DNA of 14,245 bases, taken from the NCBI GenBank assembly GCA_030066295.1, contig JASJBX010000072.1:1-14245 (forward strand), in the 5' to 3' direction. Below are positions 1,848-14,245 of this stretch, in pieces (within the stretch, counting starts at the first letter, position 1; each line of letters starts with the position of its first letter). This DNA comes from Crocosphaera sp. (lineage in GTDB: Bacteria > Cyanobacteriota > Cyanobacteriia > Cyanobacteriales > Microcystaceae). Both the position numbers and the translations under genes were made by a program. The notes beneath the pieces were generated by a model. The model had not been told where the DNA came from and did no database searches. It saw only the letters and a list, made by a program, of their open reading frames with translations.

Positions 1848-3056
1848 ATGGATCATTTCATCTCATTATTGGGCTTAATTATTTTTCTAGGCTTTGCTTA
1901 TCTCATATCTTATGAACGGTTAGCGATTCGCTGGAATACAGTTGCTTGGGGCTTTGCTTTACAGTTTCTTCTAGGAATTTTTATTTTAAAAACTCCTTTT
2001 GGTTTAGCTATTTTTGAATGGTTAGGGAATACGGTTAAAACTTTTTTAGATTATTCTGACGTAGGAGCAAAATTTGTCTTTGGAGATGGGTTTGAAGAAC
2101 ATTTTATTGCCTTTAAAGTATTACCAACTATCATCTTTTTTGCCTCATTTATTGCTATCATTTACCATTACGGAATTTTGCCCCGCATTGTTAATATAAT
2201 TAGCCGAATCATGATACGTACCATGAAAACATCAGGGCCAGAAACCTTAAGTTGTGCCTCCAATATTTTCGTCGGTTGTACAGAAGCCCCTTTAATGATC
2301 AAACCTTATATAAACTCCCTAACTTTCTCAGAATTACACGCTATTATGACCGGTGGATTTGCTACTATTGCAGGGGGAGTAATGGCTGCTTATATTGCCA
2401 TGGGAATCTCGCCAACCCATTTAATTTCTGCTTCAGTAATGTCGGCACCGGCTGCTTTAGCTATCTCTAAAATTATGTGTCCTGAAACTGATAAATCTGA
2501 AACCAAAAATGAAGTTGAGATTAATATGGAAAGTCCCTATACTAATGCTATTGATGCAGCTACGAATGGTGCATTAGAAGGGCTTAAATTAGCCCTAAAT
2601 GTGGGAGCAATGTTAATCGCTATTTTAGCTTTAGTTGCCTTAGTAAACGGCATTTTAGGGGCAATCGGTCAACCTTTCGGACTATCAAACCTATCCCTAG
2701 AATTGATTTTTTCTTATTTACTTGCACCGGTGGCCTGGTTGATGGGAGTTCCTTGGGAAGATTGTTTACAAGTGGGAATTTTGTTAGGAAAAAAAACAAT
2801 TTTAAACGAATTTATTGCCTATCTGGATCTCAAAACTTTAATCGATAATCAAACCATTTCAGCCCGTAGTCAAATCATTGCCACCTACGCATTATGTGGC
2901 TTTTCTAACTTAGGAACCATCGGTATTCAAATCGGAGGAATCAGTGCGATCGCCCCTAACCGTCAACAAGACTTGGCCAAACTAGGTCTAAGAACCATGA
3001 TAGCTGGCTCCTTGGCTTGTTTTATGACCGCTTGTATCGCCGGACTTTTATTGTAA
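1848..3056 (+). CDS. nupC: NupC/CNT-family concentrative nucleoside transporter
   Basis: 402-aa polytopic membrane protein with CNT-family motifs (NIFVGCTEAPLMIKPYI, LTFSELHAIMTGGFATIAGGVMAAYIAMGI, HLISASVMSAPAALAISKIM). It starts 6 nt after the DUF952 stop. Confidence 0.9.
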   Translation: MDHFISLLGLIIFLGFAYLISYERLAIRWNTVAWGFALQFLLGIFILKTPFGLAIFEWLGNTVKTFLDYSDVGAKFVFGDGFEEHFIAFKVLPTIIFFASFIAIIYHYGILPRIVNIISRIMIRTMKTSGPETLSCASNIFVGCTEAPLMIKPYINSLTFSELHAIMTGGFATIAGGVMAAYIAMGISPTHLISASVMSAPAALAISKIMCPETDKSETKNEVEINMESPYTNAIDAATNGALEGLKLALNVGAMLIAILALVALVNGILGAIGQPFGLSNLSLELIFSYLLAPVAWLMGVPWEDCLQVGILLGKKTILNEFIAYLDLKTLIDNQTISARSQIIATYALCGFSNLGTIGIQIGGISAIAPNRQQDLAKLGLRTMIAGSLACFMTACIAGLLL

Positions 3057-3197
3057 TATTTCTTTAACTTTTTAAGCTAATATAAATTTCCTCAGATCAC
3101 AGCCATTTTGAACAATCTGTGTTATCGTGTTGCACAGTTGGTTTAGTGTTTAGTGTTTTTAAATTTAGCTTTCTTATAGTTTTAGAGGATAATATTT

Positions 3198-3614
3198 ATG
3201 GTTCAAGCTAAAGAAAATAACAAGAGTGATGTTACTGCTATCCCTTTCTCCGTTGCCCATACAGGGGTTGCAGCGACCGAAATGCGTCCTTGGGGTTCCT
3301 TTACTACCCTAGAAGAAGGACCTGGTTATAAGATCAAACGTATTGAAGTTAACCCTGGTCATCGTCTCAGCCTACAAATGCACCACCACCGCAGCGAACA
3401 CTGGATCGTTGTATCCGGGACTGCTAAGGTAACTTGTGGGGATAAAGAGAAGATTTTAGGGGCAAACCAGTCCACTTATGTTCCTCAGTGTACCTCCCAT
3501 CGTCTGGAAAATCCAGGGGTGATTAAACTTATCCTCATTGAAGTTCAAAATGGTGAGTATTTAGGGGAAGACGATATTATTCGTTTCCAGGATGATTATT
3601 CCCGTCATAAGTAG
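3198..3614 (+). CDS. Cupin-domain protein resembling the type II phosphomannose isomerase (ManC) C-terminal domain
   Basis: The stretch RPWGSFTTLEEGPGYKIKRIEVNPGHRLSLQMHHHRSEHWIVVSGTAKV ... H.LENPG matches the cupin core of type II PMI / GDP-mannose pyrophosphorylase C-terminal domains. An AGAGGA Shine-Dalgarno-like motif lies upstream of the ATG. Confidence 0.8.
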   Translation: MVQAKENNKSDVTAIPFSVAHTGVAATEMRPWGSFTTLEEGPGYKIKRIEVNPGHRLSLQMHHHRSEHWIVVSGTAKVTCGDKEKILGANQSTYVPQCTSHRLENPGVIKLILIEVQNGEYLGEDDIIRFQDDYSRHK

Positions 3615-3634
3615 TTCAATTATACTGTCATTAT

Positions 3635-3675
3635 AATCTGCCAGATTCATTTTAGGGAATCTGGCAGATTTTTTA
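3635..3675 (+). terminator. Rho-independent terminator between convergent genes
   Basis: A perfect 14-bp inverted repeat, AATCTGCCAGATTC (3635-3648) and GAATCTGGCAGATT (3657-3670), encloses an 8-nt loop and is followed by TTTT. It sits between the + strand cupin gene and the - strand GmrSD-like gene. Confidence 0.85.
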
Positions 3676-3681
3676 TGAATA

Positions 3682-5475
3682 TTATCGGTTAACCAGTCTT
3701 TCTTTAAGTTGTTTAAGTAATAACTCAGCTTGTTCGATATCTGTTATTTCCATAGAAACAGACGCTTGGCAGTATTCAATGTTCCAGAGATTAGTTAATA
3801 TGTTTAAGTATTTTTCTTGATTTTCCTTAACTTGTTCAATTGTCCACTCATCTTGATTAAGAACATTGATAGTTACAGGAAAAATAACCTTATTTCCTTC
3901 CTTAAAATACTTGCATTTTTTCTCATCAAAATCATAATTTTTTGCAGCAGAATTTTTCTTTCGAGAGAGTAAAACTAAATTACCTAAACGATGTACCCAA
4001 GTTTCTCTTTCCTTATCTTCCCAATTTTTACACCACTGACTATTTGACTTAGGATTTTGCGGTAAAATATGCTCGATTGTCACCATTTTAGCATCAAAAC
4101 TAGGACTTAACCCTCCTTCTGCAATGGCAGAATCTAACCGTTTTAAAACATAAAGACGACTACGACTTTGTTCATATAACTCACCATTAAGAATCTCAAC
4201 TATTTTATTTTGATCTTCAGCAGATAACAAGTCTTTTGTTTTATTAATTGCTGCTTCTGCTGATTCATCAATTGCGTTTAAAAGTTGAGCATAACGTCTT
4301 CCTCTCTTGTTAATATCTACCCGTAAAATCATCAATCCTGCTGCTAATCTTTCTAAGTTAGTCAAGAAATCTTTGATGTAAGATGTGGTGCTAGGATACT
4401 TTACCAGAAAATGAATAGCAGGAGGTAACCAATCAGCATTATCAATTAAATTTAACCAACCAAAAAGACGATTAATTTCTTTTTCATCTTCTTTATTATC
4501 ACAACTAAATCGTTGATCTCTGATCATTTCAAATACATCAGAACAAGGTTTTAAGACTTCATCAATAAATTCTTTAGGGTTTTCTTGCGGTTTTAATTCC
4601 TGTCGATTACGATACTCAAACAATAACCCTTTTTTGGCTTTTTCTCTAGTTTTAATACGATGAATATAAGCAAATAACGCTTCAAAATCTTTTCTCCCTA
4701 AATCCCGTTCTTCTCCATCCCAAATTTGGGTATATTTTTGTCTTTCTTTTGCCTCTTGAATACCGCCAATAATTTCTGATTTTAGTACATCATTCAACTG
4801 CAAGTCTAAACCACGAGTATTGATAGTAGAAAAAATACGATAAGCTGTTTCAAAATCTGATGTTAAAACTGTTACTAAATAACACTTATGTAAAATGCTT
4901 TTTAATAAATATAATATCCAGTCCTCTAACTTTGTATTTTCAGGACAACGTTTTCTTAATTCTTTGACCAAAAAACGGGTATTATCTCTTAATAAAGTTT
5001 GACTATCTGTTTCTAAACCTGCATCTTTTTCTAATAAAGCTTTAATGGCTCCAGGTGTACGAATATACTCCCCAAAAAATGAATCATCTTGCGATCGCAG
5101 CTTTAAACCATACTGTTTTGAATCAAAACCTTCATCCTCCATAAAAGCATTAATTTTTCTATATGCAGGACTTTCCAAAGGTAAAAGATCACGACATACA
5201 GAAAATAATAAATTTAACGTCGTTAATCTTTGTTGGCCATCCACCACTTCCACTTTTTTAGATTTCTCTGATTTTTGAATCAGAATAATACTACCTAAAA
5301 AATAAATAGAACTATCTTTATCTGGATAAGGAAAAGCGTCTAACAAATCATTAATTAATTCTAAAACTTGATCCGTACTCCACGCATAAGGACGTTGATA
5401 AGATGGAATTTCAAATTGATAATTAGAAATGTTAAAGATTTGCTCTAATCTTTGTTCATCTGCTTTAATTGTCAT
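3682..5475 (-). CDS. GmrSD-like type IV (modification-dependent) restriction endonuclease, DUF262 + DUF1524 domains
   Basis: The N-terminal DUF262/ParB-like NTPase motifs are IPSYQRPYAWS and VVDGQQRLTTL. The C-terminal DUF1524 His-Me finger motifs are IEHILPQNP ... HRLGNLVLLSRKKNSAAKNYDFDEKK. The start is moved from the track's TTG (5499) to the ATG at 5475, which is preceded by GAAGGAGA 7 nt upstream on the minus strand. Confidence 0.85.
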   Translation of the reverse strand: MTIKADEQRLEQIFNISNYQFEIPSYQRPYAWSTDQVLELINDLLDAFPYPDKDSSIYFLGSIILIQKSEKSKKVEVVDGQQRLTTLNLLFSVCRDLLPLESPAYRKINAFMEDEGFDSKQYGLKLRSQDDSFFGEYIRTPGAIKALLEKDAGLETDSQTLLRDNTRFLVKELRKRCPENTKLEDWILYLLKSILHKCYLVTVLTSDFETAYRIFSTINTRGLDLQLNDVLKSEIIGGIQEAKERQKYTQIWDGEERDLGRKDFEALFAYIHRIKTREKAKKGLLFEYRNRQELKPQENPKEFIDEVLKPCSDVFEMIRDQRFSCDNKEDEKEINRLFGWLNLIDNADWLPPAIHFLVKYPSTTSYIKDFLTNLERLAAGLMILRVDINKRGRRYAQLLNAIDESAEAAINKTKDLLSAEDQNKIVEILNGELYEQSRSRLYVLKRLDSAIAEGGLSPSFDAKMVTIEHILPQNPKSNSQWCKNWEDKERETWVHRLGNLVLLSRKKNSAAKNYDFDEKKCKYFKEGNKVIFPVTINVLNQDEWTIEQVKENQEKYLNILTNLWNIEYCQASVSMEITDIEQAELLLKQLKERLVNR

Positions 5476-5763
5476 GATTTTTTCTCCTTCATTGATCAAA
5501 AAATTGATAATTAAGAGTGAGCAACAGCTTGATTGTATTCAGAATAAATTGAAGTAATTTTGCTCTTTTTCTCTTGTGTTTTTATTATACACTTCATAAA
5601 ATATTCTAAATGTTTATATTTATGTATTTGTCTAAGCAAATTTACTGTGATAATAGGTATTGATTTAATCCTTATAGGTAAAATTTACATAATTTAAAAT
5701 TATCCTTGGTTAAAAGTACCTAATTGATGTTACAAGGATGGGTGGTATTAATAGAATTTTAGT

Positions 5764-5939
5764 GTGATCACTTATCTTGTCGGTTGGGTTGAAGGATGAA
5801 ACCCAACAATTTTTTCTTTATTTGATATATTTGGATGATTGATAGGATACAATAGAGAAAACTTGAGTTATTAACAAACTATGGTAAAAACTTCAATTTT
5901 TCAGCAAGCAATTGAAACAGTGGAAAAACTATCTTTAGA
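5764..5939 (+). repeat. Cassette-boundary repeat copy A (flank + hairpin + conserved leader + first 19 codons of the downstream gene)
   Basis: The sequence is GTGATCAC-TTATCTTGTCG-GTTGGGTT(5783-5790)-gaaggatga-AACCCAAC(5800-5807)-AATTTTTTCTTTATTTGATATATTTGGATGATTGATAGGATACAATAG. It aligns almost base for base with copy C (6781-6950) through position 5939. It contains a -10-like TACAAT at 5848-5853. Confidence 0.9.
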
Positions 5940-6114
5940 AGAACAACAGATGTTAATCGATACTATCCAAAAACGATTACATCAACAACGTAGAGCAATT
6001 ATATCAAAAGAAATAACAGAAATTCGCCAAGAAGTGACCGAAGGAAAAGTACAATTTGGTTCAGTTGATGAATTTTTAAACGAACTTGATCGCCTATCTC
6101 GTAGGTTGGGTTGA
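5881..6114 (+). CDS. Small antitoxin-like protein, apparently orphan
   Basis: 77 aa, predicted helical. The N-terminal FQQAIETVEKLSLEEQQMLIDTIQKRL and C-terminal GKVQFGSVDEFLNELD resemble small cyanobacterial addiction-module antitoxin-like proteins from memory; this is not verified. The last 8 codons and the TGA stop (6112-6114) lie inside repeat copy B. No toxin-sized partner follows. Confidence 0.6.
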   Translation: MVKTSIFQQAIETVEKLSLEEQQMLIDTIQKRLHQQRRAIISKEITEIRQEVTEGKVQFGSVDEFLNELDRLSRRLG

Positions 6115-6131
6115 AGGATGAAACCCAACAA
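6086..6131 (+). repeat. Cassette-boundary repeat copy B (flank + hairpin only)
   Basis: The sequence is TTGATCGC-CTATCTCGTAG-GTTGGGTT(6105-6112)-gaaggatga-AACCCAAC(6122-6129)-AA. The conserved leader seen in copies A, C and D is absent, because the sequence diverges right after AACCCAACAA. Confidence 0.9.
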
Positions 6132-6216
6132 GCATAAATTTGTGGTGTATTGTGTGAATAAGCGATGGCCTTCAAGTAAGATATAATCATTATGGACTTT
6201 AAACTAAACAAACAAT

Positions 6217-6558
6217 ATGGCAAAACTTCCCAATGAAGTCCAAAACACTATTTTTAGTCTCCTGCAACAGTTAGCGAACCAAATAGAAGAAGCATCCGCT
6301 ACAGAATGGACAATCTTAGAAAGATACGGTGAAACAACAGAAACTATACCAGAACTTGATGAACTTCAGAATGTTAGAGAAAAACTAACTGAGCGTTATA
6401 ATGGACTTAACAAGCTATTGTTAAGGATTTTAGAAATTCAGCCACGGCCTCCAGAAGATATGGTAAATTTGCTAGTAAAGACTATTGAAAGAGGGCAAGC
6501 AACCATTGATTCTGCCCAAGCTAGTATTCTAGAAGTTAAAAAAAATTGGAGTTTATGA
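6217..6558 (+). CDS. Hypothetical protein, predicted all-helical (cassette 2, gene 1)
   Basis: 113-aa ORF with no family I can recognise. Its TGA stop overlaps the ATG of the next ORF (ATGA at 6555-6558), which indicates translational coupling. Confidence 0.6.
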   Translation: MAKLPNEVQNTIFSLLQQLANQIEEASATEWTILERYGETTETIPELDELQNVREKLTERYNGLNKLLLRILEIQPRPPEDMVNLLVKTIERGQATIDSAQASILEVKKNWSL

Positions 6559-6737
6559 TGAACGAATCTTTTTCTATTCCTGATGAAAAATCTAGACAAG
6601 AAAGTGTCAAAAATTTACAACAAGTACAAAAACAACTAGACCTTTTTGGCTTAGAAATTGAAGAAGTTTTAGGAATAGCAAACGCTGAAATTTTGCGCCA
6701 ACGCAGAAAACGTCTAGAAAACTCTGTAAACAGTTGA
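6555..6737 (+). CDS. Hypothetical small protein, coiled-coil-like (cassette 2, gene 2)
   Basis: 60 aa counted from the ATG at 6555. The track's TTG at 6546 is less likely. A 4-nt ATGA overlap joins it to the upstream gene. It has a basic C-terminus (RQRRKRLE) and belongs to no family I recognise. Confidence 0.5.
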   Translation: MMNESFSIPDEKSRQESVKNLQQVQKQLDLFGLEIEEVLGIANAEILRQRRKRLENSVNS

Positions 6738-6780
6738 ATTAATGTAAGTGCGATCTCGAAGAGATCAGCTTTGCGGTGCG

Positions 6781-6950
6781 TCTATCTTGTAGGTTGGGTT
6801 AAAGGATGAAACCCAACAATTTTATCTTTGTTTGATATATTTTAATGATTAATAGGATAAAATAGAAGAAAATTAAATCATTAAATAAACTATTGTAGAA
6901 ACTTCAACCTTTCAGCAAGCAATTGAAACAGTGGAAAAACTATCCTTAGA
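6781..6950 (+). repeat. Cassette-boundary repeat copy C (flank + hairpin + leader + gene-start fragment)
   Basis: The sequence is TCTATCTTGTAG-GTTGGGTT(6793-6800)-aaaggatga-AACCCAAC(6810-6817)-AATTTTATCTTTGTTTGATATATTTTAATGATTAATAGGATAAAATAGAAG. It is collinear with copy A over about 170 bp. It contains a -10-like TAAAAT at 6858-6863. Confidence 0.9.
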
Positions 6951-6966
6951 TGATTTATCTTCTTGA
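6892..6966 (+). pseudogene. Truncated paralogous fragment of the 5881-6114 antitoxin-like gene
   Basis: ATT GTA GAA ACT TCA ACC TTT CAG CAA GCA ATT GAA ACA GTG GAA AAA CTA TCC TTA encodes IVETSTFQQAIETVEKLSL, which matches codons 1-19 of the 5881 gene (MVKTSIFQQAIETVEKLSL). The ATG has become ATT. Homology ends after LSL and a TGA follows at 6964-6966. Confidence 0.75.
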
Positions 6967-7026
6967 CACAGATACCTTTTCTTAAATTATGATAAAATAC
7001 TGATCGAACACAGAGGTCAACAACTA

Positions 7027-7311
7027 ATGACAATAGACGTTAGACAAGCAGTTAAGCAAGCCAAAAATCACTTGAATCAAATTATCGATCTTTTTGGTAA
7101 TGTCAGTGATATAAGATTAGAAGAAATTGAACTATCATCAGACAACAAATCTTGGTTAATCACTTTGGGTTTCTTATTTGATACACCGATGAATCAACAG
7201 AAAAATCTTCCTGATATATTAAATAAAGCAATGAACATAAGAGAATATAAAATTGTTGAAATAGACGCAGAAACAGGAGAACTTAAGTCAATCAAAATCA
7301 GAGAATTATAA
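7027..7311 (+). CDS. Hypothetical 94-aa protein, candidate non-canonical partner or antitoxin of the downstream PIN protein
   Basis: An AGAGG motif lies upstream of the ATG. The stop overlaps the next start (TAATG, sharing base 7311). By eye the pattern is one helix followed by several beta strands (IRLEEIELS, SWLITLGFLF, REYKIVEIDA, ELKSIKIRE). I cannot see an RHH, AbrB, Phd or HTH DNA-binding motif. Confidence 0.6.
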   Translation: MTIDVRQAVKQAKNHLNQIIDLFGNVSDIRLEEIELSSDNKSWLITLGFLFDTPMNQQKNLPDILNKAMNIREYKIVEIDAETGELKSIKIREL

Positions 7312-7808
7312 TGGATGATGTTCAGAAACTTTTGAATAGATATCGAAATAAAGGCATTGTAATTGATACCAATATTTTATTACTTTTGATTGTAGGAACT
7401 GCCAATCGCAAACGAATTTCTCAATTTAAACGAACTCAACAATTTCTTCCTGAAGATTATGATTTATTAATTAAACTTATTAATCTATTTCCTAAAATAA
7501 TCATCACCCCTAATATTTTAACTGAAGTCAATAGCTTAACCAATCAAATAGGTGAACCAGAACGCTCAAAATGCTTCGCTATATTTGCTCAATTAATTTC
7601 TGAAATAGAGGAAATTGCTTTATCTAGTCAAGAGATTGTTAAAAATAATGGATTTATCAAATTTGGGTTAACTGACTGTGGAATTCTAGAACTATCTCAG
7701 AATCAATATTTAGTTCTAACCGATGATTTTAAATTATTTAATTATCTACAAAAATTAGGGATTGATTCAATTAATTTTAATTATCTTCGAGTTTATTTAT
7801 GGCAGTAA
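7311..7808 (+). CDS. PIN-domain protein (VapC-like putative ribonuclease toxin)
   Basis: The four acidic PIN positions occur in typical contexts: VIDTNILL (D19), TPNILTEV (E72), GLTDCGIL (D122) and LVLTDDFKLF (D138/139). It is 165 aa and translationally coupled to the 94-aa ORF upstream. Confidence 0.7.
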   Translation: MDDVQKLLNRYRNKGIVIDTNILLLLIVGTANRKRISQFKRTQQFLPEDYDLLIKLINLFPKIIITPNILTEVNSLTNQIGEPERSKCFAIFAQLISEIEEIALSSQEIVKNNGFIKFGLTDCGILELSQNQYLVLTDDFKLFNYLQKLGIDSINFNYLRVYLWQ

Positions 7809-7874
7809 TAAAAAATCTTTTTAAGTTTATATAAATCAAGTAATTATAAGTGACGAAAATTTCGATACATTACT

Positions 7875-7989
7875 GCGATCGCCTATCTTGTAGGTTGGGT
7901 TGAAGGATGAAACCCAACAATTTTATCTCTGTTTGATGTCTTTTAATGATTGATAAAATAGAATAGAATAGAAGAAAATTAAATCATTA
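7875..7989 (+). repeat. Cassette-boundary repeat copy D (HIP1 flank + hairpin + leader)
   Basis: The sequence is GCGATCGC-CTATCTTGTAG-GTTGGGTT(7894-7901)-gaaggatga-AACCCAAC(7911-7918)-AATTTTATCTCTGTTTGATGTCTTTTAATGATTGATAAAATAGAATAGAATAGAAGAAAATTAAATCATTA. The AATAG pentamer is expanded to three copies compared with copies A and C. It contains a -10-like TAAAAT at 7954-7959. Confidence 0.9.
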
Positions 7990-8062
7990 CCAGAAAGACA
8001 ACTAATTCGTATCCGAGTTAATCGGTTTACTTTTGATTTTAACAGTTATTAAAGAGAGAATT

Positions 8063-8248
8063 ATGATGAAATTAGATGATTCAGAATCAATTCAAGCTTA
8101 TCGTAATCGCGTCATGATTTACGCCAACGATCTTTGGTAAGAAAAAGATCCTCAAAAACGAGTGACTTTATCTATGTATTTAGCAGATGCTGCCACTACT
8201 TTAGCGCGACTAGAAGCAGAAGAAGCTAACAAAAATATTGTTGTTTAA
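8063..8248 (+). pseudogene. Small ORF interrupted by an in-frame TAA (cassette 4)
   Basis: The translation is ATG ATG ... TGG TAA(8138-8140) GAA ... GTT TAA(8246-8248), giving MMKLDDSESIQAYRNRVMIYANDLW*EKDPQKRVTLSMYLADAATTLARLEAEEANKNIVV*. A single frame of 61 codons is broken once. AAGAGAGA lies upstream of the ATG. The ORF ends 2 nt before repeat copy E. Confidence 0.5.
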
Positions 8249-8250
8249 GT

Positions 8251-8295
8251 GATCGCTGATCTTATAGGTTGAGATAAATATTTATCTTTGTTTGT
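8251..8295 (+). repeat. Degenerate terminal repeat copy E (hairpin core deleted)
   Basis: The sequence is GATCGC-TGATCTTATAGGTTGAG...ATTTATCTTTGTTTG. It keeps the left flank (9 of 12 matches after GATCGC) and the block that follows the hairpin (14 of 15 matches to TTTTATCTTTGTTTG). About 24 nt that would form the stem-loop are missing. Confidence 0.7.
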
Positions 8296-8356
8296 ATCTT
8301 TATAAATTCACCCTATCATCATACAATTAATATTTGATAGGTTATGATGCTCTAAT

Positions 8357-8689
8357 ATGATCGAATTGACACCCGCAGCCATCAAAGAAATAAAACGAAT
8401 GCAAAATAGTCGTCAACAACCTGACAGTTACTTTCGCTTAAGTGTGAAACCAGGGGGTTGTGATGGACTGTATTATACTTTCGATTTATGTGATACAAAA
8501 GAAAATAGCGATCGCTTGCACACCATTGACGACATTTCTTTGCTGATCGATGAACCAAGTTTAAAGTATTTATCAGACTTGCGCTTAGACTACGCAGAAG
8601 ACTTAATGGGAGGAGGGTTTCGCTTCCATAACCCCCTCATTACCACCTCCTGTCGTTGCGGTTTATCCTTCACCATTAAAGAAACTTAA
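8357..8689 (+). CDS. HesB/IscA-family iron-sulfur cluster assembly accessory protein
   Basis: 110 aa. ELTPAAIKEIKRM, RLSVKPGGCDGLYYTFDL, IDEPSLKYL and the C-terminal SCRCGLSF give the three-cysteine IscA/HesB pattern. Confidence 0.85.
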   Translation: MIELTPAAIKEIKRMQNSRQQPDSYFRLSVKPGGCDGLYYTFDLCDTKENSDRLHTIDDISLLIDEPSLKYLSDLRLDYAEDLMGGGFRFHNPLITTSCRCGLSFTIKET

Positions 8690-13817: not shown

Positions 13818-14245
13818 TTACTCTTGAGCTTTACCTAATTTACGTTTAAAACCTGTTCCAAAAGCGATCGCTGTTCCTGCTCCGAGGATAGTTAGAGGTT
13901 CTGGAACTGCGCTTACTTCTTTTTGAGTAAAAGTTAAATTCGTTAGCTCTGCACGAGCATTTGCTGTATAAGTTGAATCTCCAAACACAATAGTATTCAT
14001 GGTTTCTGCACGTCCAAAACTAAGTGTATTGAAATCTCTAATAAAAGTATCATTAATATATAAATCTGAATAAGTTTTGTTCCATCCACAGAAAAAGCAC
14101 TCCTAGAACTATTACTTTCTCTTATCCATCCCTGTTGATTGGGTAAACTATCAAAATTTAAGGAGATAGTAGCGGCTTTTACTTCTGAAAATATAGAAAA
14201 GCTTAACCCTATAGTTAGAAGACTACCCAGTAAATAGTTTTTCAC
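13818..14245 (-). pseudogene. PEP-CTERM-anchored secreted protein, split by a frameshift (or sequencing error); the start is at or beyond the window edge
   Basis: The upstream ORF (14245-13997) begins with GTG and a signal peptide (MKNYLLGSLLTIGLSFSIFSEVKA/ATISLNF). The downstream ORF (14000-13818) ends with a PEP-CTERM sorting signal (VPEPLTILGAGTAIAFGTGFKRKLGK). The second frame reads plausibly upstream of its ATG (WNKTYSDLYINDTFIRDFNTLSFGRAETMNTIVFGD) as far as a TAG at 14103-14105. A -1/+1 shift is therefore required somewhere between 13997 and 14102, probably near the homopolymer runs at 14075-14078 or 14092-14096. Confidence 0.6.

Follow-up and report, generated by a model that had tools for sequence, protein, structure and literature searches.

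The window analysed here, a stretch of 14,245 nucleotides from Crocosphaera sp. (GenBank assembly GCA_030066295.1, contig JASJBX010000072.1, forward strand), carries between a cupin gene and iscA/rpsL a variable islet in which different small coding units alternate with copies of one conserved hairpin repeat. What is this repeat, and is it the site at which the units are gained and exchanged? An original prediction, made from the sequence of the window alone, saw an integron-style cassette locus with the hairpin as its recombination or insertion site. Here the hairpin is identified, with very high confidence, as a GTAG-tagged repetitive extragenic palindrome (REP). As a repeat the element is ordinary. 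The units are indeed arranged like cassettes, which is explained only in part, and the REP is a frequent but facultative punctuation of these arrays, not a dedicated cassette recombination site. Described here are a 48-nt form of the REP that is prefixed by the cyanobacterial palindrome HIP1 and located between small toxin-antitoxin or defence units, its co-oriented arrays in several genera, and some of the exchange junctions.

A search of the window with the pattern GGTTGGGTTGAAGGATGAAACCCAACAA gives four matches, all on the + strand (5782-5809, 6104-6131, 6792-6819 with one mismatch, and 7893-7920), at a chance expectation of 0 in 200 shuffles. The stems read earlier at 5783-5807, 6105-6129, 6793-6817 and 7894-7918 are borne out by this search, as are the irregular spacing (322, 688 and 1101 nt from start to start) and the hairpin-less remnant claimed at 8251-8295, which extends over about 8248-8295. 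In folding as single-stranded DNA and as RNA the 8-bp stem is predicted in each copy, the 30-mer reaching about -7 kcal/mol as DNA and -11.4 kcal/mol as RNA. The five copies are termed modules A to E. As first described, each interval between them holds a different small + strand unit, namely open reading frames (ORFs) of 77 aa, of 113 and 63 aa, of 94 and 165 aa, and of 61 codons. The copies are without inverted partners and occur as co-oriented singlets 0.3-1.1 kb apart.

The consensus of the hairpin is GTAG-GTTGGGTT-GA-N-GNA-N'-GA-AACCCAAC. In the window GTAG is located directly 5' of the palindrome in modules B, C and D, and GTCG in module A. One genome per species was scanned with GGTTGGGTT-N9-AACCCAACA, which delivered at least 120 loci, mostly from cyanobacteria of many orders and from a few metagenome-assembled genomes (MAGs) of Poribacteria, Desulfobacteraceae and Gammaproteobacteria. 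At least 120 loci were found in each of two collection scans, several copies per genome occur in some MAGs, and six hairpin matches originate from viral contigs. Among the matches listed in the genome scan are 129 non-redundant copies; GTA precedes 119 of them and thus completes a GTAG tag that is absent from the search pattern, and 52 have an inverted partner within 100 nt. A GTAG tag beside an imperfect palindrome, occurring as singlets and as inverted doublets, identifies the element as a REP. Across 84 distinct sequences the loop has the form GA-N-GNA-N'-GA, in which N and N' covary (GC 51, AU 11, CG 10, GU 5, other 7) and one stem pair switches from UA to CG; 95% of the cells are paired, and the observed covariation score was reached by none of 500 shuffles. 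Across orders and phyla the stem is near-invariant, the GTAG tag recurs and the loop covaries, which speaks for an element recognised by a protein and not for a generic terminator. Hairpins of the type GTTGGGTT...AACCCAAC with other loops, which the original prediction had mentioned for other cyanobacterial genomes, are widespread in cyanobacteria by this pattern scan.

REPs are single-strand DNA hairpins that are recognised by a REP-associated tyrosine transposase (RAYT) of the HUH/Y1 type. At six loci in other genomes a RAYT-scoring gene lies directly beside the hairpins, which are inverted where both sides are visible. Two RAYT-type proteins were tested: against NCBIfam NF047646 (REP-associated tyrosine transposase), whose cut-off is 80 bits, they reach 209 and 205 bits, and both match Pfam Y1_Tnp. 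One of the RAYT loci, L234 (L numbers designate loci outside the window), carries the window's own loop GAAGGATGA together with the HIP1 prefix. Cyanobacteria contain a very large family of RAYTs, to which a Desulfobacter member also belongs. From the flanking loci and the NF047646 scores the hairpin is not an unassigned recombination site, as had been supposed, but a REP with a cognate RAYT. That the window lacks a recombinase is to be expected of a RAYT whose gene lies at another place in the genome.

Copies of the GTAG-GTTGGGTT...AACCCAAC REP, often as doublets, were observed in the MAGs of Poribacteria, Desulfobacteraceae and Gammaproteobacteria (L017, L018, L042, L054, L055, L014, L022, L041, L085), and an uncultured Desulfobacter has an annotated close homologue of the RAYT. 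These observations suggest that the REP and its RAYT have spread together horizontally, or that the bins are contaminated.

In its searchable text, PMC3733652 describes GTAG-tagged REPs in Anabaena, Nostoc and Cyanothece, including the family GTAG-15 with 9-15-nt loops in these genera, and the family GTAG-16, in which single elements predominate in Cyanothece 7424. As cited there, E. coli TnpA_REP binds and cleaves the single-stranded element. Cyanobacterial TnpA_REP subclasses are flanked by REPs with 5' GT[AG]G (PMC6006769). The present family is probably the published GTAG-15 or GTAG-16 (Di Nocera et al. 2013), as judged by the available description and not by a consensus. The hairpin sequence itself gave only chance matches to primers in the literature.

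The window copies belong to a particular form of this REP. A metagenome scan with the hairpin preceded only by ATCTYGTAGG gave at least 120 loci, and in about 70% of the matches listed AGTGCGATCGC(C/T)G is located directly upstream. By position-wise conservation the result is a 48-nt composite, AGTGCGATCGCYGATCTT-GTAGGTTGGGTT-N9-AACCCAACA, with sharp ends and no conservation outside. In the window this form reads AGTGCGATCGCYGATCTT-GTAG-GTTGGGTT-loop-AACCCAAC-A, with a HIP1-containing prefix of 18 nt; modules B, C and D represent it, and A and E are degenerate copies. The head G(C/T)GATCGC that had been taken as part of the repeat is present, and is now identified as the HIP1 palindrome.

Of the ORFs that flank HIP1-prefixed copies 68% are at most 150 aa long, compared with 36% of those beside the other REP copies (odds ratio 3.8) and 46% of those at the other gaps of the same loci (odds ratio 2.5), figures whose weight is reduced by crude ORF calls and by metagenome contigs that are partly one locus resampled. 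Among 54 small flanking ORFs, picked by eye, the Pfam families are PIN, ParE/YafQ, HicA/HicB, DUF433/DUF5615, HepT/MNT, Phd/YefM, MazE and DUF6887/6888. General REP copies also follow housekeeping genes (argC, trpD, an ABC ATPase), so the expected enrichment at small accessory genes holds for the HIP1-prefixed form beside small toxin-antitoxin genes and not for the repeat as a whole. The end of a same-strand ORF lies between -45 and +20 nt from GTAG in 35% of the copies versus 12% of random positions. A module that supplies or targets stop codons was considered and dropped: only the A at -1 is conserved, and T at -2 is close to background.

Some copies show a tandem duplication of the 20-nt prefix unit AGTGCGATCGCCGATCTTGT before the hairpin (L161 at about 8320-8375; also L156, L143, L186 and L202). 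The duplicated prefix yields GTAG-TGCGATCGC...GTAG-GTTGGG, with a GTAG tag ahead of HIP1 itself. In Aphanothece sacrum (L266, 5388-5414, 6133-6159 and 6924-6950) a second GTAG REP family with another stem, AGTGCGATCGCTGACGAGT-GTAGGGTGCGTTAATGAAATGTAACGCACC, has the same HIP1 prefix, which is therefore shared between REP families; it separates the small units of an equivalent array.

Two kinds of insertion were seen within modules. A 24-nt element, TCGAAGAGATCNGCTTNGCGGTGC (window 6756-6779; L132 5225-5248; seven other loci), splits GATC from GC in HIP1; it occupies the same HIP1 position in nine independent contexts and contains the mini-hairpin GATCTC-GAA-GAGATC. The small dispersed repeat SDR5 is reported as inserted into HIP1 and is said to be confined to Nostocaceae (PMC5861425); the 24-nt element resembles it by description, not by a comparison with the SDR5 sequence. 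The second kind is found in L130 (about 8097-8224), where roughly 125 bp bounded by terminal inverted repeats TAGCAATCAG...CTGATTGCTA and accompanied by a duplicated TA interrupt the REP module, with CTATCTTGTA on one side and GGTTGGGTT on the other; this insertion has the look of a MITE (a transposable element of the miniature inverted-repeat kind) that landed within the REP prefix.

The long leader consensus that had been described after the hairpin is found behind A, C and D and fails for B, whose right flank differs. A, C and D have module and leader in common, with right ends of unequal length. A and C have about 180 nt in common; this stretch covers the 5' part of the 77-aa gene, whose copy in C is decayed. 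The fragment of leader and antitoxin gene after C is 83-88% identical to positions 5856-5942 of the window and 92% identical to L132 4003-4172; L132 3990-4321 is 88.5% identical to window 5761-6091. The orthologue of module E in L132, at about 5250-5313, is fuller, yet degenerate.

Relatives of the locus were collected as contigs with identical RpsL, and about ten related loci were compared; the cupin gene as query recovered only the window haplotype. Between cupin and iscA this haplotype contains the GmrSD gene, the 77-aa ORF, the 113+60 unit, the 94+165 unit and the decayed 61-codon ORF. L130 contains a frameshifted PIN-like gene, the 113+60 genes with the decayed 61-codon ORF, and a helix-turn-helix (HTH) gene on the other strand. 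L132, L134, L135 and L136 contain a 72+93 unit, consisting of the 77-aa homologue and a RelE/ParE-like gene, and HicB+HicA; L137 and L138 contain a Gp49/HTH pair only. L133 and L129 are without these units, L133 with a 133-aa minus-strand ORF upstream of iscA. The view of the locus as a cassette-like, strain-variable accumulation site is supported by these differences in small-unit content among relatives. The 11 REP copies found in about 115 kb of DNA from the lineage, from loci chosen for hot spots, all lie within small-gene islets. In L129 the DNA upstream of iscA (2421-8274) carries two other genes, for a reverse transcriptase/HNH protein of the group II intron type and for TnpB (OrfB_IS605), in place of toxin-antitoxin units.

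Some junctions of unit exchange coincide with module edges. Breakpoints at the hairpin had been anticipated from an alignment of the cupin-iscA locus; three junctions at the 5' edge of a module agree with this, and other junctions lie elsewhere. To the left of module B and its 113+60 unit lies a different neighbour in each of three sequences (the window, L002 and L130), and similarity starts at GATCGCC each time. In L132 the 72-aa homologue of the 77-aa ORF overlaps the 93-aa gene, which has weak ParE/YafQ/YoeB Pfam matches below the curated cut-offs, and homology to the 77-aa region stops at GATC of module B. The window has lost the RelE/ParE-like partner gene of its 77-aa ORF; the junction lies at this GATC, and the ORF now enters the hairpin. 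The block from C to D with its leader (about 6745-8040) is absent from L130; its left junction lies 2 nt before module C, its right junction inside a 16-nt imperfect direct repeat. Within this block the 94+PIN unit has replaced most of the decayed antitoxin cassette; L139 has the unit at another locus, with 92.7% identity to window 6999-7846, and in L141 an orphan HicB lies on one side of it and a degenerate REP on the other. The features of the window are summarised in Table 1.

Table 1. Modules, flanks and gene units of the islet in the window
Feature	Position	Strand	Evidence and remarks
GmrSD-type restriction endonuclease gene	3682..5499	-	Pfam GmrSD_N E=2.4e-36, GmrSD_C E=5.7e-28; PADLOC Orf5 810 bits
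REP module A	5761..5808	+	Degenerate HIP1 prefix AGTGTGATCAC; tag GTCG instead of GTAG; hairpin 5783-5807
Leader type 1 (upstream region of 77-aa gene)	5809..5880	+	Alignment, repeat families D1, D3; common to C and D flanks and L132
77-aa antitoxin-like ORF	5881..6114	+	3' end fused into module B; stop codon inside hairpin loop
REP module B	6088..6130	+	GATCGCC-TATCTC-GTAG and hairpin 6105-6129; left edge is the breakpoint versus L002 and L130
Right flank type 2	6131..6216	+	AGCATAAATTTGTGGTGTATT...AATAAGCGATGGCC...; related flanks after HIP1-prefixed REP copies in other contigs
113-aa and 63-aa overlapping ORFs, function unknown (unit label 113+60)	6217..6737	+	ORF calls; homologues in A. 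sacrum and C. watsonii hot spot
REP module C	6747..6818	+	AGTGCGATC, 24-nt insertion 6756-6779, GTCTATCTT-GTAG, hairpin 6793-6817, loop AAAGGATGA
Leader type 1 and decayed antitoxin 5' fragment	6819..6965	+	ATT replaces ATG; truncated
94-aa ORF and 165-aa PIN-like ORF, overlapping pair, portable unit	7027..7808	+
REP module D	7872..7919	+	ACTGCGATCGCC-TATCTT-GTAG and hairpin 7894-7918
Truncated leader type 1 after D	7920..7989	+	Alignment, repeat families
Decayed 61-codon ORF	8063..8248	+	In-frame TAA at 8138-8140
REP module E remnant	8248..8295	+	AGTGATCGCTGATCTTATAGGTTGAG; hairpin deleted

The left part of the variable islet is taken up by the GmrSD gene, which belongs to this haplotype only, being absent from L130, L132 and L137. 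The G+C content of the islet is 27-35%, lower than that of the flanking DNA. Pfam, NCBIfam and PADLOC gave no match above cut-off for the five small ORFs of the window; the 165-aa product is named PIN domain-containing protein by NCBI, without a match in Pfam, and a PDB sequence search with this protein gave no useful match. In L130 the 113+60 genes are contiguous with the 61-codon ORF, as if they had once formed a single operon. The 61-codon ORF was inactivated independently twice, in the window by a change of CAA to TAA at 8138-8140 and in L130 (8876-8975) by a 1-nt deletion. A palindrome followed by a T run, ATCTGCCAGATTC...GAATCTGGCAGATTTTTT, lies at 3636-3675, just past the cupin gene; it is conserved among relatives and forms the left limit of the variable region. 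In Aphanothece (L266, 3504-5350) a GmrSD_N gene and a HEPN gene are found in the other hot spot, downstream of a Mg-chelatase gene; with the GmrSD gene of the window, this indicates that the same two hot spots collect defence genes besides toxin-antitoxin units. At the other end of the window, a 60-aa ORF on the - strand (13818-14245) ends with ...VPEPLTILGAGTAIAFGTGFKRKL and abuts an ORF that runs off the window; we take this end to resemble a PEP-CTERM sorting signal.

In the account that we consider likely, a RAYT seeds REP singlets, and these offer portable homology to the autonomous units between which they lie; they probably also form hairpins at transcript ends. The RAYT would be encoded at another place in the genome of the host and would seed the elements into intergenic DNA, a step shown for other genomes only. 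The modules with the adjoining toxin-antitoxin leader would then be the sole sequence common to otherwise unrelated units, and recombination between copies, either intrachromosomal or with incoming DNA, could duplicate, delete and swap units and leave junctions at the module edge. From what is known of REPs, the transcribed hairpins would probably delimit neighbouring autoregulated operons at their 3' and 5' ends, or insulate these ends; the searchable text of PMC3733652 mentions hypotheses of REP action in transcription termination and mRNA stabilisation.

Several observations weigh against this account. The 94+PIN unit (6999-7846) starts about 170 nt downstream of hairpin C and not at the REP, and in L139 and L140 it occupies the other hot spot, between Mg-chelatase and rpsD, without REP borders. 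The 61-codon ORF region ceases to resemble L130 about 25 nt ahead of module E. In Aphanothece sacrum the 113+60 unit, located in the Mg-chelatase hot spot, lies behind the different HIP1-prefixed GTAG REP GTAGGGTGCGTTAATGAAATGTAACGCACC, present in three copies, and in C. watsonii WH 8501 it abuts a 72+92 unit with no REP between. A terminator scan of the window gave 0 sites, and a promoter scan of it remained at chance level. No Crocosphaera sequence is among the best 120 RAYT homologues; the Y1-HUH genes that were expected to co-occur with the repeat are known beside hairpins of other genomes.

The strongest competitor, although unlikely, is neutral accumulation, in which REP singlets are merely tolerated in accessory AT-rich DNA and have no role in recombination or expression. 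The islet is accessory and of low G+C content, modules are missing at some equivalent junctions and at others have degenerated, as in A, E and the copies of L132 and L141, and a MITE and the 24-nt element have inserted into the modules themselves. Such tolerance is at odds with the coincidence of at least three junctions with module edges. It also does not agree with the contrast between general REP copies, which are not enriched and if anything depleted beside small genes, and the enriched HIP1-prefixed form. Finally, two HIP1-prefixed REP families are located in equivalent inter-unit positions in different genera, which suggests selection or targeting for position.

Arrays similar to that of the window are found elsewhere. 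L226 carries six co-oriented HIP1-prefixed modules in 4.1 kb together with VapBC-like, ParDE-like and DUF6887 genes, L228 and L156 carry three co-oriented modules each, and L266 also contains a co-oriented array. In L185, L237 and L250 the REP with a leader precedes paralogous secreted-protein genes and toxin-antitoxin pairs. Among 103 HIP1-prefixed copies, families defined by the right flank combine with several left flanks that are not related to each other (7 left groups among 14 copies, 5 among 9, 4 among 5 and 4 among 4), and every left-flank family has a single right flank. Homology between such copies begins at most 4 nt from the left edge of the element and extends 110-470 nt rightward. 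The start of homology at the left edge and the asymmetry of the flanks indicate that the element is typically the left end of longer repeated units, which matches modules A, C and D of the window with their common leader.

This pattern could be explained by RAYT-driven directional mobilisation, in which the HIP1-prefixed singlet is a fixed end that is nicked in single-stranded DNA, and the element is moved or copied with variable downstream DNA, much as other HUH enzymes such as those of IS91/ISCR perform one-ended transposition. In addition to the flank asymmetry and the left-edge homology, the unequal right ends after module and leader in A, C and D, the tandem 20-nt prefix units of some copies and the presence of the HIP1-prefixed form among RAYT-flanking copies are in favour. 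The same pattern would, however, arise if several segments, MITE-like or duplicated, simply had the 48-nt element as their left end; the right ends of some units are fixed (154, 202 and 308 nt), like those of ordinary repeats, and cassettes move without any REP too. We know of no biochemical precedent for one-ended action of a RAYT, and regard this mobilisation as improbable. The full claim, a directional copy-out of the element with downstream DNA comprising the leader with or without toxin-antitoxin or defence genes, is a shade more doubtful. If true, it would make REP/RAYT a cassette-shuffling system for cyanobacterial toxin-antitoxin and defence islets, and would tie the unexplained HIP1 palindrome to an HUH enzyme.

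A plain intrinsic terminator with a promoter, unlinked to mobile DNA, is very improbable. A T-rich tract followed by -10-like hexamers is present after the hairpin in A, C and D, and the excess of same-strand ORF ends near GTAG over random positions would fit. The stem, however, has 3 G-C pairs and a 9-nt loop, copy B is without a T tract, and the near-invariant stem, the tag and the loop covariation speak for recognition by a protein. The portable terminator-plus-promoter module of the original prediction is not supported by the scans, which found no terminator and promoter-like sites at chance.

Least probable of all is the integron-style system, in which the hairpin is the dedicated site of a recombinase that moves promoterless cassettes. 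The stem halves do match attC core strings (GTTGGGT as GTTRRRY, ACCCAAC as RYYYAAC), the hairpins are co-oriented and follow each unit, and breakpoints occur at module edges. Compared with attC, the order of motifs is reversed, with GTTRRRY first, the site measures 25 nt versus 57-141 nt, and there is no L boxes region, so that the hairpin is no canonical attC, as had been stated. Neither an integrase nor attI nor a common promoter was found in the window or about ten related loci; an attC cluster that lacks an integrase needs none, and this absence alone is not decisive. Each unit has a leader of its own, copies of the element are scattered genome-wide behind housekeeping genes, and the cognate enzyme is a RAYT. 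The occurrence of the same cassettes without the hairpin or behind another REP family does not support an obligatory site of the integron type; of the integron-style locus, the strain-variable accumulation of cassettes stands, and the hairpin as obligatory border or dedicated recombination site falls with these REP-free and substituted borders. Further classes are rejected in agreement with the original prediction: a CRISPR array by the irregular spacing, the ORFs between copies and a permissive Rfam scan of the whole window without any match, a tRNA fragment by a negative tRNA/tmRNA search, and the reading of the repeat as a MITE with terminal inverted repeats.

The biological role of the abundant REPs and RAYTs is still debated. 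The locus offers the testable idea that REPs, as portable homology and possibly as enzyme-targeted borders, shape defence islets. No report of a fixed HIP1 prefix, of toxin-antitoxin enrichment, of recurrent co-oriented arrays or of left-edge junctions was found in the searchable literature.

Integron arrays and clusters of attC sites lacking integrons (CALINs) are similar in their co-oriented hairpins between small unrelated, often toxin-antitoxin units, and in their strain-variable content. They differ from the present arrays, which have another architecture and motif order, no integrase, attI or Pc, units with their own promoter regions, and sites that are facultative and dispersed. IS200/IS605 and IS91/ISCR elements share the Y1/HUH chemistry on single-stranded hairpins and a guide tetranucleotide beside the hairpin, and ISCR in addition has one fixed end with variable adjacent DNA carried along. 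Here, unlike there, no transposase or TnpB lies inside the units and no distinct left-end and right-end hairpins were identified; a one-ended action of RAYT is hypothetical.

The closest match are the GTAG-tagged REPs and REPtrons, that is, REPs and bacterial interspersed mosaic elements (BIMEs) of E. coli and Pseudomonas with RAYT/TnpA_REP and the cyanobacterial families GTAG-12, GTAG-15 and GTAG-16. As far as the searchable text of PMC3733652 goes, they agree in the 5' GTAG tag beside an imperfect palindrome, in conserved unpaired residues at the loop edges, in the occurrence as singlets, inverted doublets and clusters just after genes, and in RAYT genes flanked by inverted copies; the same text gave no mention of a fixed HIP1-containing 18-nt prefix, of toxin-antitoxin enrichment or of co-oriented arrays. 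REPINs (Bertels and Rainey 2011, PMC3116915) are comparable to the inverted doublets with short spacer seen in 52 of the 129 copies listed, and the RAYT genes look single-copy; the copies of the window differ as co-oriented singlets 0.3-1.1 kb apart. A further parallel is the folA-apaH region of E. coli (Mine et al. 2009, as summarised in PMC3184786), an intergenic hot spot between housekeeping genes that holds the decaying toxin-antitoxin system ccdO157 in some strains and a REP in others. According to the available text of that summary, REPs were suggested to contribute to the plasticity of the region, and a single unit is found there, compared with several REP-separated units in the islet described here.

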